From NCBI GenBank assembly GCA_910587685.1, contig CAJUMY010000004.1, positions 47,706 through 111,705 on the forward strand: a DNA stretch of 64,000 bases, in the 5' to 3' direction. A model generated the notes under the pieces. It made no database searches. It saw only the letters and a program-made list of their open reading frames with translations, and had not been told where the DNA came from. This DNA comes from an uncultured Christensenellaceae bacterium (GTDB lineage: Bacteria > Bacillota > Clostridia > Christensenellales > UBA3700). Each line of letters opens with the position of its first letter. The first letter of the stretch is position 1. The position numbers and the translations under genes are program-made. Positions 5,576 to 28,620 of this stretch are shown in pieces.

Positions 5576-5576
5576 T

Positions 5577-10802: not shown

Positions 10803-10830
10803 TGCCACAAACTACATTGTGGTAGTGCGC

Positions 10831-11128: not shown

Positions 11129-11145
11129 ATATGCGAGGTATATTT

Positions 11146-12739: not shown

Positions 12740-13449
12740 TGAAAGCATTACTGTACGGAATTGGTTTGCAATTCAAGTTTGACATACGCAGTAAAGGTAT
12801 GCTTATTGCTTGTTATCTCGTGCCGCTTATATTTTTCCTGTTTATGGGCGGGATTTTCACTTCTATTGATCCAAACGCTACAAAAACACTTACCTCGTCT
12901 ATGACGGTATTTACAATCATAATGAGCGCATTGTTCGGCTTACCGCCCGCAGTTGCGGAAATCTACGGAACAGATGTTAAAAAGGTCTATAAGGCAAACG
13001 GCGCACCTATTTGGTTCGGCGTTATATCGCAATTTATTTCGTCTTTTATACATACGCTTATTTGTTGTCTTATAGTATTTGCTCTTTCGCCTTTAATTTT
13101 CAAAGCGGAGTTGCCATCTAATTTATTGTGGTATTTCTTATCACTTGTAGCATTACTTGCGGTAACTCTTGCTATCGGTTGTGTTTTCGGGCTTTTGATT
13201 AAACAGCAAGCAAAGTTGACAATGGTAGCAATGGCAATATTTTTGCCTTCCACTATGCTGTCGGGCATTATGTTTCCCGCAGATATGTTGCCACAATTTA
13301 TGCAATATATTGCCTATGCTTTCCCCGCGACAATAGCATTTAAGGCAATGACGAGTTTTCAAGTTTGGCATTTACCCGTATTGTTCGGTATATTTATTTT
13401 ACTTTGCGACGTTATCGCTCTACTGTTAAAAATTAAAGTCAAAAGATAG
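12739..13449 (+). CDS. ABC-2 type transporter permease
   Basis: 236 aa with ~6 hydrophobic helices. Its start overlaps the ATPase stop (ATGA-type coupling). Confidence 0.75.
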   Translation: MKALLYGIGLQFKFDIRSKGMLIACYLVPLIFFLFMGGIFTSIDPNATKTLTSSMTVFTIIMSALFGLPPAVAEIYGTDVKKVYKANGAPIWFGVISQFISSFIHTLICCLIVFALSPLIFKAELPSNLLWYFLSLVALLAVTLAIGCVFGLLIKQQAKLTMVAMAIFLPSTMLSGIMFPADMLPQFMQYIAYAFPATIAFKAMTSFQVWHLPVLFGIFILLCDVIALLLKIKVKR

Positions 13450-13597
13450 ATTTCCTTAAATAAAATTTCAATTTAGCGTTCTAAATGTGTTGATAAAAAG
13501 TCGAGATTCCATAAGGAGTCCCGACTTTTGCTTTTACATTGATTTGTCCGCTTTAATTCTAATTTAGATTTTGTGTGTCCATTTGCGTAAACTACAT

Positions 13598-14417
13598 TAA
13601 GGGTAAGTAAATAATCATCTTCGGCTTTATGTCTTGCAGGTGCTTTCTTGTTTTTTGCCAAACGCTGTTGCACTCTCTCGAAAACATCTTCCGATACAAG
13701 CGGTGGAATAATGTTCGGTACTGTTACATCTCGGAATTTATATTCGCCCAAATACCTGCGGTTAGATAACATACGCTGAACGCCCGTGCCGTTAATCTTG
13801 CCGCCCCGATAAGAGCGGATTTTCTTTTTGTCAAGGTAGTCAACGATATACTTAATTGTATGACCGTCGGCGTACATTGTAAATATCTCTTGAAGGATAG
13901 GTGCAAAGGTTTCGTGCGGCTCGAACTTTCTTTCCGCATTTAGTTTATAGCCGAAAGTAATTTGTCCGCCGTTGTTTATGCCTTTGAGTACGTTTTCAGT
14001 CATACCACGCACAACCTTTTCGGCAAGCTCGGCAGAATAGTATTCCGCCATACCTTCCAAAACCGATTCAAGGAGTATGCCTTCCGAGCCTTCGGCAATA
14101 GCTTCTTTTGCGGATACAACTTTTACACCGTTTTTGCGGAGTAGTGCTTTGTAGTGTGCGCTGTCGTAACGGTTACGGGAAAAGCGGTCTAACTTCCAAA
14201 CTATAATGCAATCGAAAGCGTGTTTATAGCTGTCCTTAATCATTTGCTGAAATTCGGGACGGTTATCCGATTTAGCGGAAAGCGCACGGTCTATGTAAGA
14301 CTTGATAACGTCAATTCCTGCGTGTTCGGCAAATTCCATACACTCACGAAGCTGACCTTCGATAGACGCTTCCGTTTGGTTGTCTGAACTGTATCTTGCG
14401 TAAATGACTGCTCTCAT
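13598..14417 (-). pseudogene. large serine recombinase of the outer element, N-terminal half
   Basis: MRAVIYARYSSDNQTEASIEGQ... is the resolvase catalytic Ser domain. The homologous sequence ends at ...AEDDYLLTL (codon 273, 13601..13599). The ORF then runs into inner-element DNA to a stop at 13473. Confidence 0.8.
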
Positions 14418-14418
14418 T

Positions 14419-15516
14419 TTAACCTCTGTTCAATTTGTATTTTTCAGATAAAATATTGGTTGCATTTTTATGTTTGCTTAAAATAAATATATCCTTAATA
14501 TTTGATAATGTATTTGGGTCGTCTAGGTCATCTGTAGTTAAAGATAGCATGCTCGTTTGCCCTATAATTTTAGTTGTAGTTTTATCATTATCTATAACTT
14601 GTTTTATATCTTCTGTTAAAAAATAATCCTCCGCATAGAGTAAGACGATATAATTTATAACAGACAATTTTTCTTCTTCGGAAAGCTTCTTAAATTTTTT
14701 GTAAAAACTCCTATATCGAGTTTCATTATTATTGACAAAAAGAATAATTGCTGTTTTATTCTCAAGAGGAAAAATGCAAACATGTAATTCTTTTGTTTTA
14801 TATTTTGGATTATAGCAGTATATATCATTTATAATGTTACCGTCAAAATCAAGATAAAGTGTTATTTGTCCTTGATACGCAATTGGTGTAACATAATCTA
14901 ATAGTTTATAATAAATCAGATAATATCCATCATTATCATCCTTTTTTAATAACGATTTAGCTTTTCTAATAGAAGTATAATATTCTTCATAATCCATTTC
15001 TTTTATGGCTTGAATACCTTCAATAAAGTTTTCTTTACCTATGGTTTTTTCTTTAAGAACATCATACATCTTTATTTCATCCATACGTTTGCTAATGGCT
15101 TTGAGACCATTTTTTAAGGCAATTTGAGCTAAAATCTTTGAAGAAGGTTTTTCGTTATAAGCTTTTGGATTTTCGTATTCTTGAAATACAACGCTATCAC
15201 ATTCACGGCAAATGAGTCTAAATGTGCCTGCCTCATTTATACCGTTTTCAGATTTTATGTAAAACGGATATTTAACTATTGAGTTGCAAGTACAAACTTT
15301 TCCGTCCTTTTCTATATTTCTTAAACAAAACGCAGGGACAGTATGTGAGTTGCAAAAAGAAGTTTGTTCTTTGCCACAAATCAAGCAAGAAGAAGGTTTT
15401 GCACGATTTTTTGCCTCTCGCATAATGCGGCTCATAGTTTTGTTTATCTCAATCTTATCGCCGGTAAACTCACTATTCAATTTGTCACTATTTTCTTTTA
15501 AATTGAGTGCTTTCAT
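14419..15516 (-). CDS. orphan Cys-rich protein (365 aa), function unknown
   Basis: Long AT-rich ORF with N-terminal CLICG...CNSH and CRECD clusters. The stop is 1 nt from the recombinase ATG, and the gene is co-oriented with the upstream XRE gene. Confidence 0.6.
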   Translation of the reverse strand: MKALNLKENSDKLNSEFTGDKIEINKTMSRIMREAKNRAKPSSCLICGKEQTSFCNSHTVPAFCLRNIEKDGKVCTCNSIVKYPFYIKSENGINEAGTFRLICRECDSVVFQEYENPKAYNEKPSSKILAQIALKNGLKAISKRMDEIKMYDVLKEKTIGKENFIEGIQAIKEMDYEEYYTSIRKAKSLLKKDDNDGYYLIYYKLLDYVTPIAYQGQITLYLDFDGNIINDIYCYNPKYKTKELHVCIFPLENKTAIILFVNNNETRYRSFYKKFKKLSEEEKLSVINYIVLLYAEDYFLTEDIKQVIDNDKTTTKIIGQTSMLSLTTDDLDDPNTLSNIKDIFILSKHKNATNILSEKYKLNRG

Positions 15517-15583
15517 TAATCATTATAATCCTTGGTGTGTTATTTCATTTGGTTTAATTATTTCTCGTCATTAGACCAAAGCA

Positions 15584-15943
15584 TTATTCTTTTCCTTCTA
15601 AAATTTTCAATAGCGTTTCTTTCAATTTAGCATTTGCAGGAGAGGAAGGGTCGAAGCACATTTCGACAAACGCTTGCATTTGCTCGTTGTCTTGCCAAAC
15701 CTTCGGCTGAAAATCATAGAGCTTCCCTTGTGGACTATCGCACCTACCGTATATATAGTCAAGTGATACGTCGAAGTAATCCGCATACCATAAAAGAATA
15801 TTGCTCGGAACTTCCGATTGACTATTCTCATAACGGTTGACCGCAGACTGTACCATTTTGCCGTTTGCCTTTGCGATCTTTGCTTGTGATACTTTTGTGT
15901 TCTCGCGTAATGCTTTTAAGCGTTGACCTATAACTTTATTCAT
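15584..15943 (-). CDS. XRE-family helix-turn-helix regulator
   Basis: IGQRLKALRENTKVSQAKIAKANGKMVQSAVNRYENSQ is a typical HTH_XRE N-terminus. Confidence 0.8.
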   Translation of the reverse strand: MNKVIGQRLKALRENTKVSQAKIAKANGKMVQSAVNRYENSQSEVPSNILLWYADYFDVSLDYIYGRCDSPQGKLYDFQPKVWQDNEQMQAFVEMCFDPSSPANAKLKETLLKILEGKE

Positions 15944-16063
15944 TGAATCACCTCAAAAGAGAGTATAACACACTAGAAAGATAATGTCAATATAATATCT
16001 GGGTTAATTTAATCTTTTCGACAAAACTTCCCACAAATCGCAAACATTTGTTTATATAATTTA

Positions 16064-16092
16064 TTGACTTGCTACTGCCATTGTGATAAAAT
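16064..16092 (+). promoter_or_regulatory. strong promoter reading into module B (TTGACT-17-TGnTAAAAT)
   Basis: -35 TTGACT 16064..16069, 17-bp spacer ending in TGA, -10 TAAAAT 16087..16092. Confidence 0.5.
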
Positions 16093-16118
16093 TCATACTA
16101 TACGATATAAGTCGTATT

Positions 16119-16283
16119 GTACCCTTTTGAGGGTAGAGTTCTGCGGTGGGCGTTAAAGAATTTGCCCATAGGATGCAGAAGGTTTTGGGCGGTATAACCG
16201 CCTTGCCTTAGCTTACGGAAAGAGCGTAGGTTTTTTAGTTGTACGCAAAATTCGTATGCCGTGATAGGCTTTTATAAGTGTAC
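16119..16283 (+). repeat. ~165-bp conserved module, copy B
   Basis: See copy A (10637..10802). Same order relative to its promoter, mini-ORF, oriT and mob gene. Confidence 0.8.
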
Positions 16284-16318
16284 AATTTTTTAGCTATAAC
16301 GACGTTCAATATCAACAT

Positions 16319-16357
16319 TGAATCCGTGCGGAGCGTAATGCCGAGCGGATTTTTTGT
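16319..16357 (+). terminator. possible terminator/attenuator downstream of module B
   Basis: AATCCG...CGGATT stem (6 bp plus a weak inner stem) followed by TTTTTT. The loop is rather large. Confidence 0.35.
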
Positions 16358-16424
16358 CGTTGTATTTTTAGCTATCTACCACCTTTTGCGTGGACGAGAT
16401 AAATATATTTTGGAGGTAAACACA

Positions 16425-16445
16425 ATGATTTTCAAACCGCCATAA
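16425..16445 (+). CDS. conserved 6-codon mini-ORF MIFKPP* with RBS
   Basis: GGAGGTAA RBS 6 nt upstream. Homologous to 10306..10326. Confidence 0.3.
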   Translation: MIFKPP

Positions 16446-16494
16446 TACGGCAAGCAAACGGAAAGCAACTGCATAGGAAACAACTTATCGCCGA

Positions 16495-16522
16495 GCATAA
16501 GTGTAGCTCACTACACTTAGCA
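16495..16522 (-). other. oriT-like site of the outer element
   Basis: The minus strand reads AAGTGTAGTGAGCTACACTT, an inverted repeat homologous to AAGTATAGTGTGCTATAC of copy A. It lies ~100 nt upstream of the mob start. Confidence 0.45.
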
Positions 16523-16615
16523 AGCTAAGTTGCGTTCGCCCTGCGGGGCTTTCGACCGCACGACAAAACAGAGATTTTAAGGAGGATTTTAAGTATAAGT
16601 TATTTAGTATGCCAT

Positions 16616-17605
16616 ATGGAAAAGTATAAACGGCAAGACGTTACGCCCGTTGAAAAAGAGAACGAAAGAGATGAGAACTATCAAGGCACTAATCCGCAAA
16701 TAGACAGCGAGAGAACAAACGGAAACTATCACTTGATATATCCACAGGGCAAGTACATAGAGATGATTAACAAGCGGCTTGATACTCTTACACTCAAAAG
16801 GAAAATTCGCTCGGACGCTATCCTAATGAACTCGTTTGTAATCGGATCGGACGGAGAGTTTTTCAAGGGTATGCGAGCTTGGGAACAACACGCTTTCTTT
16901 GAAGATTGCACCCGCTTCTTTATGGAAAAGTACGGCTATGAAAATATGCTGTCCGCGGTAGTCCACGTGGACGAAACAACACCGCACCTGCACTTAAATT
17001 TCGTGCCTATCAATGACGGACGATTGAGTAGCAAAAGCCTATTCGACAGACAGAAACTTGCGGAACTGCAAACCGAGCTATGGGAACAAGTCGGAAAGAA
17101 ATACGGTTTACAACGTGGTAAGGAAAACAGTCAGGCAACGCATATTACAGCCGCAGAACATAAGGCAAAAGTCATTGTGCAATCGGCGGAACAAAAGCGA
17201 GATGAGATTGACAGACAGACCGAGCAAAAGCAAGACGAACTTGACGGACTTACCCAAACGATTGAAGCGGTAACGCAAGCGATAGGCAAGCCTATACCAA
17301 AAAAGAAGAAACAAGCTGCGGACGAAATCACGGCTTTAAGAGCAAGGAACGCCGTACTCGAAGAAGAAGTCAAGCGAGCAAACAAAGACCGTACAGACCT
17401 ATTCAGAGAGTACACAAGAGAGAAACGACGAGCGGACGAATACGAAAAGACCGTACAAGAAGTTGCGGAAATCAAGGCGGTACTGCCCGAAGGTTACGAC
17501 CAACTGTTACAGGACGTGCAGTATGAAAAAGCCGAAAGATACGAAAGAGAACGGCAACGAAATCTCGCCCGTATTCACGGACGATACAGCGACCACCAAA
17601 TGTAA
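16616..17605 (+). CDS. MobV-family relaxase (second copy)
   Basis: HVDETTPHLHLNFVP motif. The N-terminal ~190 aa are clearly homologous to 9117..10127 (VTPVEKENERDENY..., RSDAILMNSFVIGSDGEFF...). Confidence 0.85.
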   Translation: MEKYKRQDVTPVEKENERDENYQGTNPQIDSERTNGNYHLIYPQGKYIEMINKRLDTLTLKRKIRSDAILMNSFVIGSDGEFFKGMRAWEQHAFFEDCTRFFMEKYGYENMLSAVVHVDETTPHLHLNFVPINDGRLSSKSLFDRQKLAELQTELWEQVGKKYGLQRGKENSQATHITAAEHKAKVIVQSAEQKRDEIDRQTEQKQDELDGLTQTIEAVTQAIGKPIPKKKKQAADEITALRARNAVLEEEVKRANKDRTDLFREYTREKRRADEYEKTVQEVAEIKAVLPEGYDQLLQDVQYEKAERYERERQRNLARIHGRYSDHQM

Positions 17606-17645
17606 ACTTAATAACCGCTTATAAGGAGGAAAACGCCAACAGTTA

Positions 17646-17834
17646 ATGTCAAGACGGAAAAAGAACACCACAGGGATACCCGATTTTGAAATCGATTCCC
17701 TTGCAAGAGCATTATTGCCCGCTATACAAGCCTACTTTGAAACCGAAGAAGGACAAAGAGAGTTTGCGGCGTGGCAAGCCGAAAGGCAACAAAAACAACT
17801 GAATAATAAATTGAATAATAAAGAATCCCGTTAA
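17646..17834 (+). CDS. small hypothetical protein (62 aa) of the mobilisation module
   Basis: ORF directly downstream of mob, preceded by an AGGAGGA RBS region and followed by a strong terminator. Confidence 0.45.
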   Translation: MSRRKKNTTGIPDFEIDSLARALLPAIQAYFETEEGQREFAAWQAERQQKQLNNKLNNKESR

Positions 17835-17964
17835 ATCGTATAGGGATAGCCGTTGAAAAAGACGGATAAGGAAAACCGCTATATAGTGAAGCGGTATATA
17901 AATGAAAGATACATAAAAACAATGTTAAAAGGTTGCGCCGAATATTAGAAACCTATATAACGGC

Positions 17965-17998
17965 AAGAGGCAGAGCTAAAAGCTCTGCCTCTTTTTAT
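17965..17998 (+). terminator. intrinsic terminator
   Basis: AAGAGGCAGAGCT-AAA-AGCTCTGCCTCTT followed by TTTAT. Confidence 0.7.
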
Positions 17999-18004
17999 AT
18001 ATGG

Positions 18005-19095
18005 GTGAATTATACTATCAAGTGCAACAGGTGAGAATAAAAAAAGAGTTCATATAAATCAATGTGTTATAATTAGTTTGCAACAACAAAAAACACAGGA
18101 GAAATATATGAACTACACCCATCTTACCATAGAAGAACGCGCTTGTCTACGAAAATATTACGTTGAAGGAAAAAGTTACAGAGAAATAGCACGGTTGCTC
18201 GGGAGGAACGTAAGCACAATCTCGCGCGAGATTGCTCGCAATTACACTCACCGTTACGCCATAAATACATACTACCCGCACACAGCGCAAAAGTAATATC
18301 TGCTTCGCCGCTCATTCTGTCACATGGGAATGTTTTGGAATAAAGAAGTAATTGCTTACATAAATGAAAAGTTACAGTTAACGTGGTCACCGGAACAAAT
18401 AGCGAGTACGCCGTGTCATTTAAAGATGCCTACATTTAAAACGATATATCGTTGGATATATGAAAAGTATTTGGCAGGCGGGAACGTTAAAGTATTACGG
18501 AAGAAAGGCAAAACGAGGAAACGGCTTGGAAACGGCGGAAGATTTACAATGGGGAAAAGTATACGAAAACGAGATAAAAGCGTATATAAACGCAAAGAAT
18601 TCGGACATTGGGAAGCAGATACGGTAGTATCCGGACGAGGAAAGACGAAAGCCTGTTTTGCAACGCTTGCGGAAAGAAAGACAAGATTTTATATAGCAAT
18701 TAAGATACCGAACAGAAACGGTGAAACAATGGCGAGAGCAATAATACAAGCATTGGGCAAGCTGCCGAAAGGAGCAGTTAAGACGATAACTTGTGACAGA
18801 GGCAGCGAATTTGCTAATTGGCGACAGGTTGAAAAAGAACTTAATTGTGATATGTATTTTGCAGACCCGTATTGTGCTTGGCGGAAAGGAACGAATGAGA
18901 ACCTGAACGGTTTATTGAGAGAATTTTATCCCAAGGGCAGAAATCTTTCTCGCGTTTCTAAAAAAACGCTCGAAAAAAATCTGGCGTTAATTAACGCCAG
19001 ACCGAAAAAGGTTTTGGGCTTTAAAAAACCCGTTTATTTATTTAACTTTTTTTTAACTAAGTGTTGCACTTAGTTTGACAATTCACTATATGAGT
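18005..19095 (+). mobile_element. IS30-family insertion sequence
   Basis: Imperfect terminal inverted repeats GTGAATTATACTATCAAGTGCAACA (left) and TGTTGCACTTAGTTTGACAATTCAC (right). TATATG occurs in both flanks but is not flush with the IR ends. Contains an IS30 transposase. Confidence 0.75.
18108..19073 (+). pseudogene. IS30-family transposase with an in-frame TAA stop
   Basis: The N-terminal HTH part (MNYTHLTIEERACLRKYY...TAQK) and the DDE part (...WSPEQIAS...HWEADTV...DRGSEF...NENLNGLLREF) are in the same frame. They are separated only by TAA at 18294..18296. Confidence 0.8.
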
Positions 19096-19349: not shown

Positions 19350-19772
19350 ATGAGGGCTGTCATTGTGATAAATTGTCTTTTAGCCGCTTTAGAGTGGAGT
19401 GATGTTGCTGATGCTGTGTATGTATTAGTGGGTGCTATTTTAGGGATGGCATCGTCCTTGCTTATTGGCTGGGGAGCCAAACGATATGGAATACGCCGAT
19501 TAAAAAAGATGTTACGAGTGGAATTAAATGGCATCAAGCAAGAGGTAGAGGACAATATTGCAGACAGTGGCGAAATTATTCTTCCTTCACCGATTTGGAA
19601 TTTTATTGGACAAACATCTACATTATTGGATTTAAAAGTAAGCGACTATAAAAAGGTAGTAGCGATCCATGGCGCAATTATTGCGTTTAAGGAAACAGAA
19701 AGCAATAGTGCCACTCGTAGTGAAGCCAATAGACGTAATTTTATCAAGGAAATAAACGAGAATACATTTTGA
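19350..19772 (+). CDS. small membrane-anchored protein (140 aa), unknown function
   Basis: One clear N-terminal TM helix (AVYVLVGAILGMASSLLIGWGA) followed by a soluble charged domain. Lies 17 nt upstream of the NTPase gene. Confidence 0.5.
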   Translation: MRAVIVINCLLAALEWSDVADAVYVLVGAILGMASSLLIGWGAKRYGIRRLKKMLRVELNGIKQEVEDNIADSGEIILPSPIWNFIGQTSTLLDLKVSDYKKVVAIHGAIIAFKETESNSATRSEANRRNFIKEINENTF

Positions 19773-19789
19773 TTGAATAGGTAAAACAT

Positions 19790-22700
19790 ATGAGTACGAA
19801 GCATATTAGGATAATTAAAAAACTTGATGATATTCTTGGTTCTCTTCTAGAGAAAACCAAAATCCTGTGTAGCAATGTAAATCTATTTGGTGGAAGTATA
19901 TCTAATGCCTCTCTATATGGTATTTATATTCCGATGCCAACAAATTTCAAGCTTAATGTAGCGATTAAAAATCACGAAATTGAATGTATCGAGGAAGAGA
20001 GAGTATATCGGGATGATACGCTAAAATATTCTAAAGGTATAAATGAGAACATAAAAAAGCTTGGAGGTCAAGTATCAAGCATTTTAAGAGATGGGTTGGC
20101 TAATCATGTGAAAAATGGAGATGAATATAATTTTCCGGATCCCCATGATAGACCCCTGATTATGAGTGCACCTTGGGCAGATGGCTATAAAAAGAACTAT
20201 TGGACGCTGAATGTTTTTGATATAGTATCTATTTACGATCGAGTAGCGTTATTGGGGAAGCCCGGGACAGGTAAAAGTACGGCGTTGAAGTATCTGGCTT
20301 CTACGCTGATTGAAAATATTCTAACGAACGAACAGATGACAAGTGTTGATGTCTTGTCTGATAAACTTTTTGCTGAGAATTATATCCCCATTTATATTGA
20401 ATTCAGAAAATTGGCTAACTGGTGGAATGAAGAGGTTGAGGCAACAAGAATAGGAAATGAAGAGAGAATTAATCTTGGTCTAATTACGCGGTATCTGTAT
20501 AGTCAAGCGGGAATAAGTTATATCAATGGAACGAGATTGCCGAGCCAGAATAAATATATTTTTATGTTCGATGGGATAGACGAAATCCCTCAGGGCATAA
20601 ATAATATTGATCATGCCTTTTCTCAGAGTGCGCTAAATTATCTCGTGGGTGAAATTGCCAGGACATATGGGGGCGAGAATAAAGAGGTTAAAATTTTATT
20701 CTCTTCAAGAATAGACGAGTTCAATAGCTATTCGTTCAACAATTTTGAAGTTGCAGAGCTGGTTTCGATGAATGAATATATAGCGATTGATTTAATTGAT
20801 AGAATAAAAACATTATGCAATGATGAATGTACGGATCCTAGGGGGTTATTGGCAGAATTAAAGGAAAAAGGATTTGGCGATGACATCGTTTTCAATCCGA
20901 TGCTGTTGTCTCTATTATCATTTGTTGCTATAGATAAAGGTAAAGGGAAATTGCCGGACAATAAATGCGAGGTATTGCGAGAGAGTATAGAATTATTACT
21001 TAAAAGATGGGCGACAAAGGGTGAAAATAAACCGGCTTTCTTCAGTCAATTTGAACAGGAGGGCAATTTATACGGACAAGCTATCTTTAAGGAGTTAGAG
21101 AAATTTGCCTACGAGTCGGAAGAAAATGGTCAAATTAGCATTGCGGTTCTATATAGTTTTATGCGTAGAGAACAAAGTAACGCAAATTCAATCATGGACT
21201 ATTTATCAAAAACGGCAGGGTTGATTGTCGAAGATACAGAGTTATCGGCTAAATTTGCACACAAAAGTTTCAGATCGTATTTAGCTGCGTCATATATTTG
21301 TAATCAAGCCAATGTCGTTGAATTGTTGCTGAAAGAAGTTGATAAAAGCATAGCTATTGGTGGAATTAATGAAACATTGACGCTAGCTGTGGAGATATTA
21401 TTAGATGATAATTCTCAAGGTTACACGTTAGAGTCGTTTGTTTCGCAGAGTCTGGATAAGTATAGCGATTATGATTTATGCGTTTGGTTTATTGGTAAGA
21501 TTGTAAGCGGCAGAGAGGGGAAATTTTATAAAGAAAGGATTATTCACAATACATATATTACAACGAAATTATTAGAAAAATTGGGGTCAGTATTTCATGA
21601 ATCCAATCAAATACCACCGAATAAGCGTATAGAGTGTGGATATTTTCTTGGTCAACTCGGTGATCAGCGAGAAGGTATCGGAAACACCGAAGCTAATTTA
21701 TCGGACATCGTTTGGTGCCCTGTAAATAAGTGCGAATTAGAATTTGGTCTTACGAAGGTCGCACGTGATATGGTGTCAAAAACTCCGTGGGGTGCCGATA
21801 TTGATTTTTCAAGGGAATGCACGAAAAAGGGCGAAACCATCAAAATGGATATTGATGAATTTGAAATATCCAAATATCCCGTTACTGTGGCGCAATTTAC
21901 AGCATTTTTACAAGACAATGACGGATATAAAAATAAAAGGTGGTATACATGGTCAGGGGCAAGTTTAGACTATTATAACGGTGTTGTGATTAAGACAATT
22001 CCAAAAGAAAATGCCACTGATTACTATTTCGATTTTTATTTGCCCAAATTATTTCGAATACCAAATCTGCCTATCACTCACGTCCCGTTCTTTGTTGCCA
22101 TAGCATTTTGTAAGTGGTTAACAGAAAAAATGAATGACGGAACAGAGGTGCGGTTGCCTACTGAAATGGAGTGGGAGACCGCTGTGAAAATGCGGGGAGG
22201 TCAAGTATATGAATGGGGCGATGATGGTGTCAATTCAGATTGGCAAGATCAATTTGTTACCAATAATTGTAACTGCCTGGGCACCAAAATATATCGAGTG
22301 TGTCCAGTGGGGTCATTCAATGATACTAAGGAGAGGACGCCGGTTGATTTAACAGGAAATGTTTGGGAATGGACATCGTCCTACTTTACTGACACACTTG
22401 GAATAGTAAGTGTAAACACAACTATTAACACAATCGAAAATAAACATCTGACAACGGACAACGCCAAAAACTTACTCATTACCGCTAGAGGGGGGTCGCT
22501 GCATAATGGTTTGAATGGCTTGCGCGTTTCATTCCGCGGAAGAGATCCGATTCTTGCCGATGCTGCCGATCGTCATTCATTTAGGGTCGTACGCACAAAA
22601 CCGCGAACGATAAGTTATTATGAAGAGAGAAAACTAGCGAAGGGAAATAATAAGAATGGAGTGGCAGAAGGTTACGGGCTTCCTGTAAATCGAGGTGACA

Positions 22701-22960
22701 AAATCACTATAATGTATAGGATTAGTCGGAATAAAGAACTTATACAGCCGCAATCCGATTTTACATTTGTTTTGGGAGATGGTATAGTTCATCAGGCTTT
22801 GGAAAAAGAGATCATGAACAATCACAGAAGGGCATGCAATTTTACAAAGCATTATTTAGGTAAGGATCTTTTTAATGCAAGTGGGTTTAAAAATATTATT
22901 GCGCCCAATGATGAATTGGAAGTGTTCATACACATAAAAGACACTATGGAAATCAATTAA
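19790..22960 (+). CDS. NACHT/STAND P-loop NTPase fused to FGE-sulfatase (SUMF1)-like and FKBP-like C-terminal domains
   Basis: Walker A LLGKPGTGKST (aa 154-164) and NACHT-like Walker B IFMFDGIDEIP. FGE-sulfatase motifs YPVTVAQFTAFL, LTGNVWEWTSS and ARGGS (aa ~640-937). The last ~95 aa follow the FKBP pattern (GDKITIMY / FTFVLGDGIV / IIAPNDELEVFIHI). Confidence 0.8.
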   Translation: MSTKHIRIIKKLDDILGSLLEKTKILCSNVNLFGGSISNASLYGIYIPMPTNFKLNVAIKNHEIECIEEERVYRDDTLKYSKGINENIKKLGGQVSSILRDGLANHVKNGDEYNFPDPHDRPLIMSAPWADGYKKNYWTLNVFDIVSIYDRVALLGKPGTGKSTALKYLASTLIENILTNEQMTSVDVLSDKLFAENYIPIYIEFRKLANWWNEEVEATRIGNEERINLGLITRYLYSQAGISYINGTRLPSQNKYIFMFDGIDEIPQGINNIDHAFSQSALNYLVGEIARTYGGENKEVKILFSSRIDEFNSYSFNNFEVAELVSMNEYIAIDLIDRIKTLCNDECTDPRGLLAELKEKGFGDDIVFNPMLLSLLSFVAIDKGKGKLPDNKCEVLRESIELLLKRWATKGENKPAFFSQFEQEGNLYGQAIFKELEKFAYESEENGQISIAVLYSFMRREQSNANSIMDYLSKTAGLIVEDTELSAKFAHKSFRSYLAASYICNQANVVELLLKEVDKSIAIGGINETLTLAVEILLDDNSQGYTLESFVSQSLDKYSDYDLCVWFIGKIVSGREGKFYKERIIHNTYITTKLLEKLGSVFHESNQIPPNKRIECGYFLGQLGDQREGIGNTEANLSDIVWCPVNKCELEFGLTKVARDMVSKTPWGADIDFSRECTKKGETIKMDIDEFEISKYPVTVAQFTAFLQDNDGYKNKRWYTWSGASLDYYNGVVIKTIPKENATDYYFDFYLPKLFRIPNLPITHVPFFVAIAFCKWLTEKMNDGTEVRLPTEMEWETAVKMRGGQVYEWGDDGVNSDWQDQFVTNNCNCLGTKIYRVCPVGSFNDTKERTPVDLTGNVWEWTSSYFTDTLGIVSVNTTINTIENKHLTTDNAKNLLITARGGSLHNGLNGLRVSFRGRDPILADAADRHSFRVVRTKPRTISYYEERKLAKGNNKNGVAEGYGLPVNRGDKITIMYRISRNKELIQPQSDFTFVLGDGIVHQALEKEIMNNHRRACNFTKHYLGKDLFNASGFKNIIAPNDELEVFIHIKDTMEIN

Positions 22961-22973
22961 GGAGATATATATT

Positions 22974-23717
22974 ATGGCTAAAAAATTAGTAGGTAAAGTT
23001 GCAATTGTTACAGGATCTTCTTCGGGCATCGGCGAGGGTATAGCTAAAAAATTTGCCGAAGAAGGTGCAAACGTCGTGGTTGTTTCTAACCGCGCAGTCG
23101 AAAATGGGAAAGCGGTATGTGAACAACTTTGCAAAATGGGAAGCGATGCGATCTATTGCCAAATGGATGTTTCTAACCCTGACGACATAGAGCGTTTATT
23201 TAGCACAGTTATGAAAAAATACGGACATTTGGACATCTTGGTGAATAATGCTGGGGGTCAAGTCGCAAGTCCGTTCGGCAAGACGACCTTTGAAATGCTG
23301 GACCAAGATATGCGCGTGAATGCTTTCGGTCCATTCGTTTTATCGCAGAAAGCCGCCGAATGTATGGGCGAAAAGGGATGGATAATCAACACCTCAAGTT
23401 TTCGCTCAATAGATCCTCGTCCGCCCATCCTTGGATACTGTGCGTCAAAAGCTGCATTGAACAATATCACACAAGCGCTGGCATTGCAATTGGCACCGCG
23501 TATTTTTGTAAATGCGGTTTTGCCCGGATTTGTGGAGACCGAAAATTATAAAAAGTTTGATGCTGCGTTGAAAGAAAGTTGGGTACAACAAACACCCATC
23601 AAGAGGTTTGTAACGCCGGAAGAACTTGCTGAAGTTTATTTGTTGTTGGCAACAACAGAAATCTTAACGGGTACATTAATCGTTGCAGATGGTGGTTTTT
23701 CCTTGCTTGGGAGATAA
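22974..23717 (+). CDS. short-chain dehydrogenase/reductase (classical SDR)
   Basis: TGSSSGIGEGIA, NNAG and S...YCASK motifs. The AAGGAG RBS overlaps the stop of the upstream gene. Confidence 0.85.
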   Translation: MAKKLVGKVAIVTGSSSGIGEGIAKKFAEEGANVVVVSNRAVENGKAVCEQLCKMGSDAIYCQMDVSNPDDIERLFSTVMKKYGHLDILVNNAGGQVASPFGKTTFEMLDQDMRVNAFGPFVLSQKAAECMGEKGWIINTSSFRSIDPRPPILGYCASKAALNNITQALALQLAPRIFVNAVLPGFVETENYKKFDAALKESWVQQTPIKRFVTPEELAEVYLLLATTEILTGTLIVADGGFSLLGR

Positions 23718-23725
23718 TCGGTTTT

Positions 23726-24607
23726 ATGTTTAAAAATGCTCCGAAAAGAATCGATGTTCATGCACACGCGTTGATATCTAAAGAGATAAGCATACCACGT
23801 TTAGATGGTACCGTTTTGCATGACTATAAAGAATTGTGTAATCTTTACGATAACAACGGGATTGCTATGGGTATCATAATGCCCATAGTGAGCCCGGAGT
23901 TTCAATCTTTTTTGGTAACAAATGAGGATGCGTGGTTTATGTCTAGCAATTCTGCAAACCGATTAAAATGGTGTTGCAATATCGATCCTCGCATGGAGTG
24001 TTTTTCAGACAAGACAGACTTTTCCAGAATGTTACGGTTCTACAAAAGCAAGGGCGCTGTCGGGGTTGGAGAGCTTATGGCCAATTACTCATTGGACGAT
24101 CCTATTATGGACAATTTATTGTTCCATTGTGCAGAGTGCGATATGCCCGTAACAATTCATTGGGCAGAGGTGCTTAATAGAGGGTATGGCATTTATGGCG
24201 GTGGAAATATGGTTTTACTTGAGAGAACCTTAAAAAAATATCCCAAATTAACCATAATAGGGCATTCGGTTCCTTTCTGGGATTTATTATATGAAAAAGC
24301 TGGGGGGAGACGTCTTGTCCAACTTATGAGAGAGTGTCCCAATTTATATTGCGACACTTCGGCAAATAGTGGTTATAATGCAGCGAGTAAAAATACTCCA
24401 TATTTTTATGAGTTTTTAAACGAATTTCAGGATAGAATCTTGTTCGGATTGGACATTTGTTATATTGGCGAAAATCTTTACAAAAAAACTATTAAGTTTT
24501 ATGATGACGCATTAAATAACAATTTTATTACCAGAGAAATTTATGATAAAATTAATTACATAAATGCCGTTAAGCTATATAAATTGAATATACACGAGGA
24601 AAGATAA
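23726..24607 (+). CDS. amidohydrolase-fold metal-dependent hydrolase/decarboxylase family protein
   Basis: RIDVHAHAL N-terminal metal-binding motif and a TIM-barrel-sized 293 aa. The family-level call is from pattern only. Confidence 0.6.
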   Translation: MFKNAPKRIDVHAHALISKEISIPRLDGTVLHDYKELCNLYDNNGIAMGIIMPIVSPEFQSFLVTNEDAWFMSSNSANRLKWCCNIDPRMECFSDKTDFSRMLRFYKSKGAVGVGELMANYSLDDPIMDNLLFHCAECDMPVTIHWAEVLNRGYGIYGGGNMVLLERTLKKYPKLTIIGHSVPFWDLLYEKAGGRRLVQLMRECPNLYCDTSANSGYNAASKNTPYFYEFLNEFQDRILFGLDICYIGENLYKKTIKFYDDALNNNFITREIYDKINYINAVKLYKLNIHEER

Positions 24608-25905
24608 TGGATTCATATAAAATATTAATTATCGGATTGGGACCTGTTGGATTAGCTACGGCAATCGGATTTGCGTATGCGGGGCATGACGTTGTTTGCT
24701 ATGATATTGATAAAGAACGTATTAACTCATTGAAAAATGGCGCGACTCCATTTTTTGAGCAGAATTTACAATATTATTTAGATAAACATGGAGACAAACT
24801 TCATTTCACAGATAATTTAGAGGAAGCATTTAGCGAGACTAACGTTTTCTTTATATGTGTTGGTACACCTCTTGGGCAAAATAATAGTGCAGACATGGCA
24901 GCTTTTTGGAATGCAATAAATGATATTGTAAAAAACGCAAAATGTGATTCAATAATTGTTATAAAATCCACGGTCCCTATTGGTACAAATAAGAAAGTTG
25001 TTCACTACATAGAGACATTGCATTTAAAACATGAATTTGGCGTTGTATCCAATCCCGAATTTTTGGCTCAGGGCACCTCGGTAGAAGATACTATTAAAGC
25101 TACACGTATTATTATAGGTTGTAATGCTCCATATTTGCGTGATTTAATGTTAGACATCTATGATAAATTTGATGGCGAGAAGATAGTTACTACTCCTGAG
25201 AGTGCAGAATTAATTAAATATGAAGCGAATTGCTATTTAGCTATGCGTGTTTCATTTGTTAATGATTTGGCACATACTTGTGATTTGGTTGGTGCTGATG
25301 TCGAGTCGGTCTTAAAAGGTGTTTCAATGGATCCGAGAATTGGTACACATTATTTCTCACCGGGATTAGGTTACGGCGGATCATGTTTTCCTAAAGACAC
25401 AATTTGTTTTCATAACCAAATTCAAGCTGAATATGGTTATGAGTTGGAACTAATTGAAGCAACTATAGACGTAAATAAAAGGCATCCTTTACGTTTGTGC
25501 AGAAAAATAATGGCAAATTGTGGTGGTGATTTAATAAATAAAAAAATAAGTATATTAGGATTATCGTTTAAGAAAGATACAGACGATGTAAGGGATTCTT
25601 TAGCTGTTAATATAGTTTCATATCTTGTATCAAACGGTGCAAATGTTACTGTATGGGATCCCGAAGCTATGAGAAATGCAAAGAAAATATTTGCGGATAA
25701 AGTAACTTATGCTAATTCGCTTAACGAAGCAATCGATGCAAGTGATACGATTTTTATTGCTACTGATTGGGATGACATAGTTAATATCCCTTTTGATAAG
25801 TTAAAAAATAAAAATGTATATGATGGCAGGAATTGTTATTTGAATCGTCAGGAAGAGATAAAGTTCAACTATTATTATGTCGGTGGTTCAATCAGTGATA
25901 AATAA
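24607..25905 (+). CDS. UDP-glucose/GDP-mannose (nucleotide-sugar) 6-dehydrogenase family
   Basis: N-terminal Rossmann motif ILIIGLGPVGLATAIGFA and catalytic GGSCFPKD. 432 aa. Confidence 0.85.
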   Translation: MDSYKILIIGLGPVGLATAIGFAYAGHDVVCYDIDKERINSLKNGATPFFEQNLQYYLDKHGDKLHFTDNLEEAFSETNVFFICVGTPLGQNNSADMAAFWNAINDIVKNAKCDSIIVIKSTVPIGTNKKVVHYIETLHLKHEFGVVSNPEFLAQGTSVEDTIKATRIIIGCNAPYLRDLMLDIYDKFDGEKIVTTPESAELIKYEANCYLAMRVSFVNDLAHTCDLVGADVESVLKGVSMDPRIGTHYFSPGLGYGGSCFPKDTICFHNQIQAEYGYELELIEATIDVNKRHPLRLCRKIMANCGGDLINKKISILGLSFKKDTDDVRDSLAVNIVSYLVSNGANVTVWDPEAMRNAKKIFADKVTYANSLNEAIDASDTIFIATDWDDIVNIPFDKLKNKNVYDGRNCYLNRQEEIKFNYYYVGGSISDK

Positions 25906-27040
25906 AGATATTGCCAAAAAAATTCGTGTTGTTGTCGTTGGTGGAATAAGAACACATTACATAAAAATTAATGCTATCCAAAAAGAATACGCAAAACTTC
26001 CTCTTGAGTTGCAAAACCAATTTGAGGTTATTTATGTGAATGTTGGACAGCATTATGATTATGCTCTAACTTGTCATATTGAGGCGTTAGGTGTTCATTT
26101 TGATTATACTTTACAGCATGAATCTAAAGCCTCGTATGATATTTTATCATCAATATTTAAACAGTTCGGTAATTTATTGGATGACATATCCCAAAGCGGA
26201 AAAATTGACTATGTTGTTGTTATGGGTGATGTTGCTACAACAGCGGTATCCGCTATGGTTGCAATTGTTAAGGCGATTAAAGTAGTCCATATAGAAGGCG
26301 GTGTACGGGTTAAAAGGGGCAATGGGAATGAGGAATTTTATAGGACTATTGCCGATCATTGCTCAACACTTTGTTTTGCAAGCACGCATGAGGATTACAC
26401 CAATTTGATTAAAGAGGCTTTTAGTACTCGTGCCTATTTCTCTGGAGATATTATGTATGATTTTGTAAAAGATTACTTTAAAAACAAATCTTTTACAGAG
26501 TTTAACTACATCATAGGTAACAAGCTCAAAAGCTATAAAATAACTAATAACTCGTATATTTTATCATCCTTGCATCATGTCGAGAATATAGAGGTTGACT
26601 TATTGCAGAATTTATTTAACGCTTTTTTCCAGAGTCAATTCGATAGTATTTTTATAGCTCATCCTAGAATTAAAAAGTTGATTGCTGACAACCGAATTGA
26701 TACACAAAAGACCCTCGTTGTTGACGCTATACCATACCAAGAAAATCTGAAAGCAATTAAGAGTAGTGTTTTTTGCTTTACCGATTCTGGGGGTATACAA
26801 AGAGAGGCGTACTACTTTAATAAGCGCTGCATTGTATGTAGCGATTTAACCGTTTGGGATTCGATTATCAAAACGGGAAGCAACATCACAATTGGCAAAA
26901 CCATGGAAGAGGTAAACCGTGGGCTTCGGTGGGCAGAAGAGAATGCTAATGCCAATTATGAATATGATGGTTGCTTTGGAGATGGACAGGCAGTTAAAAC
27001 TATTTTTGGGAAGATTTTAGAACATTATGAAACTATCTGA
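25877..27040 (+). CDS. UDP-N-acetylglucosamine 2-epimerase-like (Epimerase_2 family)
   Basis: The pattern VVVMGDVATTAVSAMVA...VVHIEGGVR...FTDSGGIQREAYYF mirrors WecB motifs. The start is uncertain (29-nt overlap with the upstream gene). Confidence 0.6.
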   Translation: MSVVQSVINKDIAKKIRVVVVGGIRTHYIKINAIQKEYAKLPLELQNQFEVIYVNVGQHYDYALTCHIEALGVHFDYTLQHESKASYDILSSIFKQFGNLLDDISQSGKIDYVVVMGDVATTAVSAMVAIVKAIKVVHIEGGVRVKRGNGNEEFYRTIADHCSTLCFASTHEDYTNLIKEAFSTRAYFSGDIMYDFVKDYFKNKSFTEFNYIIGNKLKSYKITNNSYILSSLHHVENIEVDLLQNLFNAFFQSQFDSIFIAHPRIKKLIADNRIDTQKTLVVDAIPYQENLKAIKSSVFCFTDSGGIQREAYYFNKRCIVCSDLTVWDSIIKTGSNITIGKTMEEVNRGLRWAEENANANYEYDGCFGDGQAVKTIFGKILEHYETI

Positions 27041-27914
27041 TTTTATTTGTTGTGATTTGGAGATTGAGCAAGATTGTGATTTCGATGCACTAATAAAAAT
27101 AGACGATCGGTTTGATGGTCGCGCTTTAACATTTGTAGAAAATGAAAAATATATTGATAAGGTTATAGATAGTAAAAGCATCGTTGGTATAATCATAGCA
27201 AAAGAGCTAAAAGGTAAAATAAAAAACAAACAATTAGGTATTGCCTATTCTTCTGTACCAAAGGCGTCGCTTATACGTATCAATAATATGATGCTCCCTC
27301 ATTTTAATGAAACACAGATTGGTAATAGCTGTAAAATATCTCCAAGCGCAAACATTAGTCCTGATGGAGTCGTAATTGGAGATAATGTTGTTATCGAAGA
27401 TAATGTAACTATTTATTCGGGTACCGTTATTGGATCAAATTGCATTATAGGTAGTCATAGCGTTATTGGAAGTGATTGTTACGAGAGATGCTTAGATGAA
27501 AATGGCAATCATGTGATTGCCACGCATAAAGGTGGCGTTATTATCAGAGATAATACTATAATTGAACAAAGAGTAATTATTGATAAGGCCTTGTTTAATT
27601 GGGATAATACCGAAATTGGTTGTAAATGTTTTGTGGGTCGCGATGCTTGCATCGCCCATGGTTGCAAATTATTTGAAAATGTTTACATTTACCATAGAGC
27701 ATTTTTATGCGGCAATGTTATTGTGGAAAGAAATAGTAAAATTGGGATAGGAGCTATTGTTGCTAACAGAGTTCATATTGGAGAAAATGCAGACATTAAG
27801 CTAGGTAGTGTTGTAACTAAAAATGTTGAGAATAATTCGGCAGTGTCGGGCAATTTTGCCATTCCGCACTCTGTCTTGATTGAAACGATAAAAAAATTAG
27901 CAAAGAGCCAATGA
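27027..27914 (+). CDS. LpxD-like left-handed beta-helix acyl/acetyltransferase
   Basis: N-terminal LpxD-like domain (ALTFVENEKYIDKV...) followed by hexapeptide repeats (IGDNVVIEDNVTIYSGTVIGSNCIIGSHSVIG). Confidence 0.7.
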   Translation: MKLSDFICCDLEIEQDCDFDALIKIDDRFDGRALTFVENEKYIDKVIDSKSIVGIIIAKELKGKIKNKQLGIAYSSVPKASLIRINNMMLPHFNETQIGNSCKISPSANISPDGVVIGDNVVIEDNVTIYSGTVIGSNCIIGSHSVIGSDCYERCLDENGNHVIATHKGGVIIRDNTIIEQRVIIDKALFNWDNTEIGCKCFVGRDACIAHGCKLFENVYIYHRAFLCGNVIVERNSKIGIGAIVANRVHIGENADIKLGSVVTKNVENNSAVSGNFAIPHSVLIETIKKLAKSQ

Positions 27915-28167: not shown

Positions 28168-28244
28168 TGGTGCACCCTAAGGGATTCGAACCCCTAACCT
28201 TTCGGTCCGTAGCCGAATGCTCTATCCAGTTGAGCTAAGAGTGC
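28168..28244 (-). tRNA. tRNA-Arg (anticodon ACG)
   Basis: The reverse complement GCACUCUUAGCUCAACUGGAUAGAGCAUUCGGCUACGGACCGAAAGGUUAGGGGUUCGAAUCCCUUAGGGUGCACCA folds as a cloverleaf. Anticodon loop CUACGGA, encoded CCA. Confidence 0.9.
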
Positions 28245-28296: not shown

Positions 28297-28620
28297 CATA
28301 TTGGACGGTCTTTTTTGATATGATTTGTAGAAAAGTAAGTTTGATTTTAACTGTAGGCGACTATAGGACGCATTTTGCAGAGTTTATATAAGAGCCGTTA
28401 TAAGGATCGCGTAAGCGAATATTAATAAAATTCCGATATTGACAGGGTATTAAGAGCTATGCTATAATTATCGAGATATTAGTTTTGGTAATATCTTGGA
28501 GCAAAACATCATTATATGTATTTTGATTTGCATATTTATAACAGAAGAAAACGTTGTCTTTGTATGAATCAAGACAATGCAAAAAAGCTAAAATTTCCGA
28601 TTGCAGAAGGATATTGATAT

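Follow-up and report, generated by a model that had tools for sequence, protein, structure and literature searches.

An FKBP-linked clade of NACHT-FGE proteins encoded together with nucleotide-sugar enzymes

What is the role of a STAND NTPase that carries a lectin-fold domain and an FKBP-like tail, and does it act alone? The question is raised by a gene in a 64,000-nucleotide stretch of the genome of an uncultured Christensenellaceae bacterium (contig CAJUMY010000004.1), hereafter called the window. Its product combines a NACHT module with a domain related to formylglycine-generating enzymes (FGE) and an FKBP-like domain, and an earlier note on this DNA had treated it as a stand-alone four-part protein. 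Comparison of related loci showed instead that the gene is part of a conserved cassette of six to seven genes. The clade to which it belongs is rare; its FKBP is found either as a fused part of the NACHT-FGE protein or as the product of the next gene. Of 13 distinct loci of this clade, 12 have the NACHT gene packed closely together with genes for nucleotide-sugar-tailoring enzymes.

The features of the window are collected in Table 1, where loci and proteins of relatives are designated by the letters L and P, respectively. From position 19350 to 27914, successive genes are separated by 17, 13, 8, -1, -11 and -14 nt, the first value being the gap between the gene of the small membrane protein and the start of the NACHT gene. 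This tight spacing argues for a single operon.

Table 1. Features of the cassette and of its surroundings; positions are those of the window
Feature	Position	Strand	Remarks
Small single-pass membrane protein	19350..19772	+	140 aa; N-terminal transmembrane helix and helical cytosolic tail
NACHT / FGE-like / FKBP-like STAND protein	19790..22960	+	1056 aa; sole long open reading frame there
Conserved pre-NACHT N-region	19790..20209	+	aa 1-140; motifs PMPTN and EYNFPxPxDRPLI..PWxDGxKxNYWTL
NACHT NTPase module and helical spacer	20210..21619	+	aa 141-610
Linker NKRIECGYFLGQLGDQREGIG between NACHT module and FGE-like domain	21620..21682	+	aa 611-631; HEAT-repeat-like by eye
FGE-sulfatase / C-type-lectin-fold domain	21701..22600	+	aa ~638-937; Pfam PF03781
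FKBP-fold C-terminal domain	22658..22945	+	aa ~957-1052; FKBP_C-derived, degenerate pocket
Classical SDR oxidoreductase	22974..23717	+	247 aa; best match glucose-1-dehydrogenase/FabG-like subfamily; kept in L009, L011, L013, L015, L016
Amidohydro_2 family hydrolase	23726..24607	+	293 aa; kept in L009, L011, L013, L016, L017, L100
Nucleotide-sugar 6-dehydrogenase, TuaD/UDP-glucose dehydrogenase-like	24607..25905	+	432 aa; TIGR03026 E 2.1e-119; found in most loci
Divergent UDP-GlcNAc 2-epimerase-family enzyme (Epimerase_2)	25877..27040	+	Pfam E 1.2e-50; JGI start at 25895
Hexapeptide-repeat acyl/acetyltransferase, LpxD/NeuD-like	27027..27914	+	295 aa; kept in L009, L011, L013, L015, L016
tmRNA gene	449-798		tag AKNNNQMAFAA; queuosine genes next, then stacked mobile-element genes (6186-19073)
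Large serine recombinase	6938-8569	-	
Mob_Pre relaxase	9117-10127	-	
MerR and ABC-2 transporter module	11131-13449		helix-turn-helix (HTH) regulator also in same stretch
Large serine recombinase	13473-14417	-	
Mob_Pre relaxase	16616-17605	+	
IS30-like element remnant	18078..19073	+	HTH_38 and rve open reading frames; just 5' of NACHT operon

The linkage between the NACHT gene and nucleotide-sugar enzymes extends down to ~26% identity of the NACHT protein among the FKBP-linked loci. The window-type enzyme set recurs beside homologues of 77%, 68%, 43%, 37% and 36% identity, with the cassette order rearranged at L016 and one or two genes missing at L009 and L015. The sets themselves are exchanged: the SDR, Amidohydro_2 and hexapeptide transferase characterize one group of loci, and an aldo-keto reductase (AKR), GFO_IDH_MocA, DegT and formyltransferase proteins the other. 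The second type of cassette (proteins P0014 to P0017) comprises genes for an AKR, an Epimerase_2 enzyme, a UDP-sugar dehydrogenase, a GFO_IDH_MocA protein, a DegT aminotransferase, a formyltransferase and a 230-residue protein, often with an EamA transporter, the latter being present in three cassettes (L099, L101 and L102). The P0017 locus, L100, has this set minus a called dehydrogenase and formyltransferase. The P0055 locus, L102, is found on what looks to be an integrative element of Bacteroidota type, with the AKR, the 230-residue protein, EamA and Epimerase_2. The control set consisted of 148 loci with more distant relatives of NACHT and/or FGE type, drawn from species-representative genomes, JGI metagenome contigs and viral contigs of IMG/VR; close relatives were found in none of these three collections. 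These 148 loci gave one weak match to Epimerase_2, and the FKBP tail was detected in only one of them, L021, which is itself a true relative.

The ~230-residue protein is encoded directly 3' of the NACHT gene (L098 6337-7032, L099 6443-7150, L101 8414-9106 and L102 10883-11581). It has no Pfam match; identity between the copies at L098 and L099 is 45%, and both contain the motif FLRHDVDF. Judged by eye from the RHDVDF motif, it looks polysaccharide-deacetylase-like.

Epimerase_2 is the most widely shared enzyme partner, being found in 11 of the 12 cassette loci, with relatives at L009, L011, L013, L015, L016, L098, L099, L100, L101 and L102. The window enzyme scores 132.7 bits against the wecB model, whose cutoff is 210, and 40.5 bits against NeuC. 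These scores bear on the possibility that the enzymes are themselves the effector: once activated, they would drain the pool of UDP-GlcNAc or UDP-glucose, turning it into an exported product or a dead end, and thereby starve cell-wall synthesis or phage DNA glycosylation, in the manner of the systems that deplete NAD+ or dNTPs. Epimerase_2 and one oxidoreductase form the minimal conserved set, and three cassettes have the EamA transporter. Free-sugar chemistry downstream of a hydrolysing epimerase would also be compatible with the AKR, the glucose-1-dehydrogenase-like SDR and Amidohydro_2, whose family counts lactonases among its members. However, the epimerase is nearer to the non-hydrolysing WecB than to NeuC, the window cassette has no transporter, and there is no evident way for the NACHT protein to switch on separate enzymes. 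We consider precursor depletion very unlikely.

The NACHT protein was analysed domain by domain. All the motifs listed in the earlier note are present at the places given for them in the 1056-residue translation. A word-indexed search of 5.8 billion proteins returned only ten full-length relatives (36-100% identity), which are the source of the 10-sequence alignment used here and to which the statements on invariance refer. The Walker A motif LLGKPGTGKST (aa 154-164, nt 20249-20281) contains the segment GKPGTGKST (aa 156-164) matching GxxGxGK[ST], in which G156, P158, G159, G161, K162 and T164 are invariant. In the Walker B motif IFMFDGIDEIP (aa 257-267, nt 20558-20590), the segment IFMFDGIDE (aa 257-265) has invariant F258, F260, D261, G262, D264 and E265. 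The sensor-1 segment ILFSSR (aa 302-307, nt 20693-20710) has invariant S306 and R307, and the motif NPMLLSL (aa 369-375) is invariant or nearly so. The winged-helix His motif FAHKSFRSYLAA (aa 489-500, nt 21254-21289) is invariant at F489, A490, H491, S493, F494, R495, Y497, L498, A499 and A500. NACHT proteins are recognized by a Walker B that follows the pattern hhhhDG[hL]DE, by a 'TSR'-like Arg at sensor 1 and by a His motif in the winged helix, FxHxSFxE/xYLAA.

Against the Pfam NACHT model (PF05729), whose gathering cutoff is 26.7 bits, the window protein reaches 18.9 bits. Of the 10 family members, 8 match the model at E<=0.01, the best at 9.7e-10; among wider relatives, 41 of 43 match it. 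Because of the invariant motifs and of the Pfam matches in 8 of 10 relatives, we assign the P-loop module to STAND NTPases of the NACHT clade despite the sub-cutoff score of the window copy, in line with the STAND identity proposed in the earlier note. Compared with PDB sequences, the NTPase profile gave mostly spurious matches to designed PPR repeats, with NOD2 appearing only at E 0.86, and was thus uninformative. The linker that follows, NKRIECGYFLGQLGDQREGIG, is invariant at K612, E615, C616, G617, L620, G621, G624, D625, R627 and G629, and its motif recurs in the consensus of 43 distant relatives. The gene product is thus a NACHT-clade STAND NTPase with a constant N-region, the NACHT module, a helical spacer, a lectin-fold FGE-like domain and an FKBP-derived domain. 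Among known defence models (PADLOC-DB v2), the NACHT protein gave only P-loop-only matches at E>0.04 and the operon partners gave no match. The NCBIfam model antiphage_EruA scored 23 bits against the window protein, for a cutoff of 1000.

The first ~150 residues had been reported in the earlier note to be devoid of recognizable motifs and to occupy the position of an effector. The former holds, as the first ~140 residues have no match in Pfam, NCBIfam or PDB sequences, the N-region profile giving 0 matches in the latter. The latter does not. With the profile of the full-length protein, an exhaustive HMMER search yielded 1602 representatives at E<=1e-30, of which the best 150 were searched locally with sub-profiles. 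The N-region profile (A3) matches at least 50 of these best 150 NACHT-FGE representatives, and the match often starts 100-400 residues into the protein, i.e. behind an extra N-terminal extension. In 43 such extended relatives, Pfam identified TIR_2 (19), ThsB_TIR (4), EAD8 (3), CHAT (2), Trypsin_2 (1) and PNP_UDP_1 (1) domains. For P0015, where this was checked, the TIR domain is located in the N-terminal extension. The N-region is thus constant between a variable extension and the P-loop, and it is therefore a pre-NACHT module rather than an effector; it follows that the window protein has no fused effector. An AlphaFold2 model of aa 1-140 built from the 10-sequence alignment was unusable (predicted local distance difference test, pLDDT, of 53).

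The small membrane protein encoded upstream has a single hydrophobic segment at about aa 19-43 and no match in Pfam or PADLOC. The small upstream open reading frames of related loci form one homologous family, and the profile of this family detects a homologue directly 5' of the NACHT gene at every one of the 9 distinct loci that encode a NACHT protein lacking an N-terminal extension. The same profile finds none at L099, where the protein is fused to TIR, at L101, with another extension of 238 residues, at L102 or at L021, and none in the 148 control loci. Since the distribution of the membrane protein is complementary to that of the fused extensions, it suggests that the membrane protein stands in the effector's place.

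This alternation also bears on whether the system belongs to immunity at all. STAND proteins such as MalT are sugar sensors, and the NACHT protein might likewise be a ligand-gated regulator or scaffold that senses a sugar intermediate through its lectin fold and controls or organizes the pathway, a housekeeping role. The tight embedding of the gene among metabolic-enzyme genes and the lack of a recognizable fused effector in the window protein would be expected of such a regulator. However, Pfam and NCBIfam detected no DNA-binding or other output domain, the close relative P0015 has a TIR domain in the same cassette, and the small membrane protein alternates with fused effectors. The loci are also sporadic, low in GC and found on mobile elements. 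We regard a metabolic role as quite unlikely.

The FGE-like domain begins with the motif IVWCPVNKCELEFG at aa 640. Pfam FGE-sulfatase (PF03781) matches aa 685-935 with an E-value of 1.5e-30 (107.1 bits, gathering cutoff 23.3), and the region includes the motifs YPVTVAQFTAFL (aa 696-707), LTGNVWEWTSS (aa 854-864) and ARGGSLH (from aa 899). The nearest solved structures are the EgtB C-domain, SUMF2, FGE and PorK. Catalytic FGE enzymes have a pair of active-site Cys residues in a C-terminal GGS-x-x-C-x4-C motif. In an alignment by eye with that motif, the segment GGSLHNGLNGLR of the window protein has Asn and Gly at the positions of the Cys pair (GGSLHNGLNG), and the paired Cys residues of catalytic enzymes are thus lacking in this alignment. 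All ten homologues have Asn at the first position; at the second, where this protein has Gly, most homologues have Cys. NCBIfam matches are restricted to the FGE-like part of EgtB, OvoA, SenA and PorK and are all far below cutoffs. For EgtB and OvoA, only the C-terminal FGE-like part matches (71 bits for a cutoff of 360 and 66 for a cutoff of 400, respectively), and the DinB-like iron-binding domain of EgtB is absent from the window protein in the NCBIfam comparison. In NACHT proteins of the literature, this domain, called FGS, is described as a lectin-fold 'antigen-receptor-type' sensor (PMC8195603; bioRxiv 10.1101/2022.07.19.500537; PMC13581612). The FGE-like domain recognized in the earlier note is thus real, and, as that note had proposed, it is probably a non-catalytic sensor, judging from the replaced Cys residues and from the published view of the domain.

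We also considered diversification of this domain by a diversity-generating retroelement (DGR) and rejected it, as the segment RGGS...NG.N.LR..FRGRDP...DRHSFR, in the C-terminal part of the domain, ranks among the best conserved in the ten homologues. No hypervariable region was found in the FGE-like domain among them. There is no reverse transcriptase among the annotated neighbours; no search aimed at template repeats was made.

The C-terminal segments that had been taken as FKBP-like, GDKITIMY, FTFVLGDGIVHQALEKEI and IIAPNDELEVFIHIKD, are all present. The profile of the ten tails (aa 945-1056) matched 22 PDB sequences at E<=10, and all 22 are FKBP peptidyl-prolyl isomerases (PPIases). The best match, the SlyD/FKBP12 chimaera 4odp (E 0.002), aligns across the whole domain. 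With FKBP12, hhalign placed 83 columns in register, at 26% probability. An AlphaFold2 model of the tail, obtained from the 10-sequence alignment, has a pLDDT of 84.3 and a pTM of 0.75. Foldseek found 204 PDB matches to this model at E<=0.001, and the top 50 are all FKBP domains (TM-score 0.66-0.74, root-mean-square deviation, rmsd, of ~2.1 A, probability 1.00). The window tail has no match to Pfam FKBP_C (PF00254) at E<=1, and one of the ten family tails matches at 0.0042. Together with a stand-alone homologue at L021 described below, the profile and structure searches confirm both the FKBP fold and the FKBP ancestry of the last ~95 residues. We rejected an identity of the tail with the GreA/B-C domain, given that all matches listed in the PDB profile and Foldseek searches are true FKBPs.

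The state of the active site was read from the tail alignments, using FKBP12 numbering. Y26 (Y976), L50-G51 and V55 are kept. Y82 is replaced by Phe1028, W59 by Leu, Ile or Phe, and I56 by His1001, invariant in the ten core-family proteins; the position of F99 is variable, and the loop bearing F36 and D37 is deleted in the fused tails. Thus, of the active-site aromatics that the earlier note had proposed to check, Y26 and, as Phe, Y82 are retained, while the F36 loop is deleted and W59 replaced. The set of residues forming the catalytic and FK506-binding pocket (Y26, F36, D37, F46, V55, I56, W59, Y82 and F99) is not present as a whole. The tail is therefore unlikely to be a canonical isomerase and is probably a binding or regulatory module.

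The FKBP is fused in the core family (P0001-P0010) and in P0013, with weaker matches in P0014, P0015, P0016, P0055 and one fragment. In contrast, P0017 (L100) is tail-less: this 922-residue protein ends with the FGE domain, and an overlapping downstream gene (5336-5704) codes for a 122-residue protein with a precomputed FKBP_C match and a tail-profile match of 1.3e-6. At L021, in an Oscillospiraceae metagenome-assembled genome, a gene for a 128-residue protein (4348-4734) is found 3' of a disrupted NACHT-FGE gene; its product matches Pfam FKBP_C at 2.5e-9 (37.8 bits, cutoff 21.1) and the tail profile at 4e-5. That the FKBP is fused in some lineages and encoded by an adjacent gene in others argues that it works together with the NACHT-FGE protein. 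A word-indexed search of the 5.8-billion-protein collection with the FKBP profile returned only 4 small proteins.

The L021 NACHT-FGE gene (1169-4206) is split into at least two open reading frames (1169-3022 and 3523-4206) beside a DDE_3 transposase gene, and it is apparently a decaying copy that retained the FKBP gene. The stand-alone FKBPs of L100 and L021 have a Cys-rich insertion (CPEDRDSCGDGCC and CHESNYQNQFCQKCIDC, respectively) in the loop that is deleted from the fused tails. This insertion may be a metal-binding flap.

These results allow the model of the earlier note to be weighed, namely a stand-alone STAND protein whose N-terminal ~150 residues form a novel effector and whose active FKBP domain recognizes or isomerizes proline-containing phage proteins. 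The FKBP fold and ancestry are upheld, and the N-region has no known homologue. FGE enzymes bind a Cys-x-Pro-x-Arg peptide, and both C-terminal domains would therefore descend from binders of proline-containing peptides. However, the N-region is constant family-wide, behind extensions in which TIR and other effector families occur; D37, F36 and W59 of the FKBP pocket are lost, and the protein was never found alone in the loci compared. The model is in our view highly doubtful.

The cassettes have a mobile context. The GC content of the window cassette is 36.7%, compared with about 45% in the flanks, and the low-GC stretch that contains it also holds the serine recombinases, the two Mob_Pre relaxases and the IS30-like remnant. 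The OLD-family ATPase gene (AAA_15/TOPRIM) is found just 3' of the L011 cassette. Adjoining the Bacteroidota-type copy (L102 13504-18883) are genes for a Pentapeptide_3 protein, an Nmad3 protein, McrC and an EVE-McrB fusion, which make this a defence-island neighbourhood. FKBP-linked NACHT cassettes are thus carried on integrative or mobilizable elements, and the low GC content, the recombinases, relaxases and insertion sequence, the OLD ATPase and the Pentapeptide/Nmad3/McrBC genes place them in a mobile and defence context. In the window, the IS30-like remnant occupies the position held by a NusG paralogue in relatives; such paralogues are found 5' of the operon at L011, L012, L014 and L100.

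The most likely role of the system is that of a conflict system resembling NOD-like receptors (NLRs), directed against phages or mobile elements. The TIR, CHAT, EAD, trypsin and PNP families found in the 43 relatives and the literature class of NACHT-FGS proteins as antigen-receptor-type NLRs argue for an immune-type clade. The FGE-like and FKBP-like domains would most likely sense a ligand jointly, its binding would lead to NTP-dependent oligomerization of the NACHT module, and the co-encoded membrane protein would act as the output, through membrane damage or growth arrest, in place of the TIR domain fused in relatives. With less support, the co-transcribed enzymes are predicted to convert UDP-hexose or UDP-GlcNAc to a clade-specific modified sugar or sugar nucleotide. 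The sensor might read or use this product, which would serve as a ligand made by the system itself to set the switch, or else as a label placed on the target; the enzymes would then not be unrelated cargo. The whole chain, from FGE/FKBP sensing and membrane output in trans to a sugar product read by the sensor, is a tentative proposal that we hold to be quite possible, if short of probable.

Several observations weigh against this proposal. The number of distinct loci is low, about 13, and most of them are on short metagenomic contigs. The decayed L021 copy has its FKBP gene and no sugar genes nearby. PADLOC has no match for the NACHT protein or for any other member of the operon, and the effector role of the membrane protein is based solely on its complementary distribution with the fused extensions. 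No glycosyltransferase or flippase that would use the sugar donor was found in any cassette locus, and a polymerase is likewise unseen. NusG paralogues upstream are typical of polysaccharide operons; hence, the sugar genes might constitute a surface-glycan module of their own that accompanies the NACHT gene.

In that case, the NACHT-FGE-FKBP protein and the membrane protein would be a self-contained defence system, and the sugar enzymes independent cargo, for instance for surface-glycan or teichoic-acid tailoring that blocks phage adsorption; both would share a NusG-controlled operon since both are useful on mobile elements. The NusG paralogues at the four loci named above, the kinship of the enzymes with WecB-, TuaD- and WbpB/E/D-type steps and the L021 copy are consistent with such co-travelling modules. 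However, the linkage persists to ~26% identity, through order shuffling and replacement of the enzyme set, spans seemingly Firmicute-type and Bacteroidota-type elements, and was not found in the 148 other NACHT/FGE loci. The lack of glycosyltransferase, flippase and polymerase in every cassette locus speaks against a glycan module as well. We consider independent cargo unlikely.

The NLR-like switch also has a bolder form, that of a distinct class of system. The lectin-fold/FKBP sensor would be genetically locked to a diversifying nucleotide-sugar pathway of its own, and a rare sugar metabolite or glyco-tag made by that pathway would gate the STAND switch or mediate its action, with a membrane protein in trans or a fused TIR domain as output. 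Two versions fit: the metabolite could serve as an 'antidote or licence', so that the switch is tripped when it is lost upon infection, or the sugar could mark invader molecules that are read by the lectin domain. We regard this form as unlikely.

Further features of the surroundings were recorded. Several mobilizable elements seem to have accumulated in a stack 5' of the cassette (6186-19073). At L003, the upstream cargo (216-6084, corresponding to window ~6-16 kb) is unlike that of L001 and L002, and the NACHT cassette is identical. It comprises genes for an 851-residue SMEK_N protein, a radical-SAM/SPASM enzyme and two small open reading frames, where the window has other genes. The region 5' of the cassette looks like a hot spot for cargo exchange. 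At L011, a 1295-residue protein with a double zinc ribbon and BspA-type LRR_5 repeats is encoded between the NusG paralogue and the membrane-protein gene (3656-7543). Directly 3' of the window operon is a tRNA-Arg(ACG) gene (28168-28244, minus strand). Beyond it, a perfect sigma-70-like promoter (12/12; 28439-28468) precedes an open reading frame for a 103-residue lipoprotein-like protein, which is accompanied by one for a 189-residue Exo_endo_phos-like protein. This tRNA and promoter region is possibly an island boundary or attachment site. The window also contains a GerA gene at 31114, which fits a spore-forming Firmicute, and a second very long open reading frame (52112-56050, plus strand, 1312 residues).

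Comparison with known systems indicates which parts are new. NACHT-FGS proteins have been described as bacterial NLRs of the antigen-receptor type (Kaur et al. 2021, PMC8195603; Kibby et al., bioRxiv 10.1101/2022.07.19.500537; Lee et al. 2026, PMC13581612), and relatives with N-terminal TIR, CHAT, trypsin, PNPase and EAD effectors are known from the same studies (PMC8195603; bioRxiv 10.1101/2022.07.19.500537; PMC13581612). The window protein resembles them in its NACHT NTPase followed by a single FGS lectin-fold domain, the presumed sensor, and its relatives have the same kinds of N-terminal effectors. In contrast, it has no fused effector, has an FKBP-derived domain after the FGS domain and shows no sign of DGR hypervariability, and its gene is one member of a conserved operon that also encodes a membrane protein and nucleotide-sugar enzymes. 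In the preprint of Kibby et al. (bioRxiv 10.1101/2022.07.19.500537), a figure legend includes an 'FGS-C' domain, undefined there; it might be the FKBP-like tail.

The terms epimerase, nucleotide sugar and NusG are absent from Kaur 2020; in Kaur 2021 (PMC8195603), epimerase and NusG are absent and 'sugar' is used three times, never in connection with such an operon. We found no literature joining a bacterial NACHT with FKBP, or STAND proteins with nucleotide-sugar or epimerase operons in defence. Thus, NACHT-FGS fusions are already known, and for the FKBP tail and the sugar operon no description was found.

The tail resembles FKBP PPIases (FKBP12, Burkholderia Mip and SlyD) in fold (TM ~0.7, rmsd ~2.1 A) and in detectable sequence homology, and the stand-alone partner proteins score as FKBP_C. 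It differs from them in the deletion of the F36/D37 loop and in the replacement of W59 by an aliphatic residue or Phe and of I56 by an invariant His. In the TPR-GreA/B-C-PIN conflict systems, GreA/B-C is an FKBP-related domain in a predicted counter-invader protein (Kaur et al. 2021, PMC8195603). Those systems and the window protein have in common the recruitment of a small FKBP-related domain into such a protein; however, the window tail matches FKBP isomerases and not Gre factors, and its partners are NACHT and FGS rather than TPR and PIN.

With regard to the enzymes, WbpA/B/E/D/I form the route to UDP-2,3-diacetamido-2,3-dideoxy-mannuronic acid, and WecB/WecC and TuaD perform nucleotide-sugar steps. 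The L098, L099 and L101 cassettes share with the Wbp pathway the UDP-sugar 6-dehydrogenase, GFO_IDH_MocA, DegT, N-acyl (formyl) transferase and Epimerase_2 proteins. The window cassette has the dehydrogenase, Epimerase_2 and a hexapeptide acyltransferase among the steps of these pathways; it lacks an aminotransferase and has SDR and Amidohydro_2 proteins instead, and its epimerase falls below the WecB cutoff. In contrast to the Wbp and Wec pathways, the cassettes are devoid of glycosyltransferase, flippase and polymerase and are linked to a STAND NTPase.

Avs and other single-gene STAND sensors share with the window system the sensor-NTPase-output logic and residence in mobile or defence islands. 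The window system has instead a lectin-fold and FKBP sensor rather than TPR-like repeats, a multi-gene cassette and no PADLOC match, and its output is probably delivered in trans.

Even a conservative reading of these data corrects the first-pass analysis: the N-region is not an effector, and the FKBP is a separable partner, present as a fused domain or as a separate gene. The cassette (19350..27914) is compact, at 8.6 kb. Bacterial NLR-like proteins are now seen as single proteins that bind phage proteins directly. If true, a metabolite-coupled bacterial NLR would be without described counterpart among the Avs or bNACHT systems in the literature compared. If the coupling is functional, small-molecule or glycan chemistry could be wired into STAND immunity, and the widespread and unexplained FGS sensor domain would gain a concrete class of ligands.

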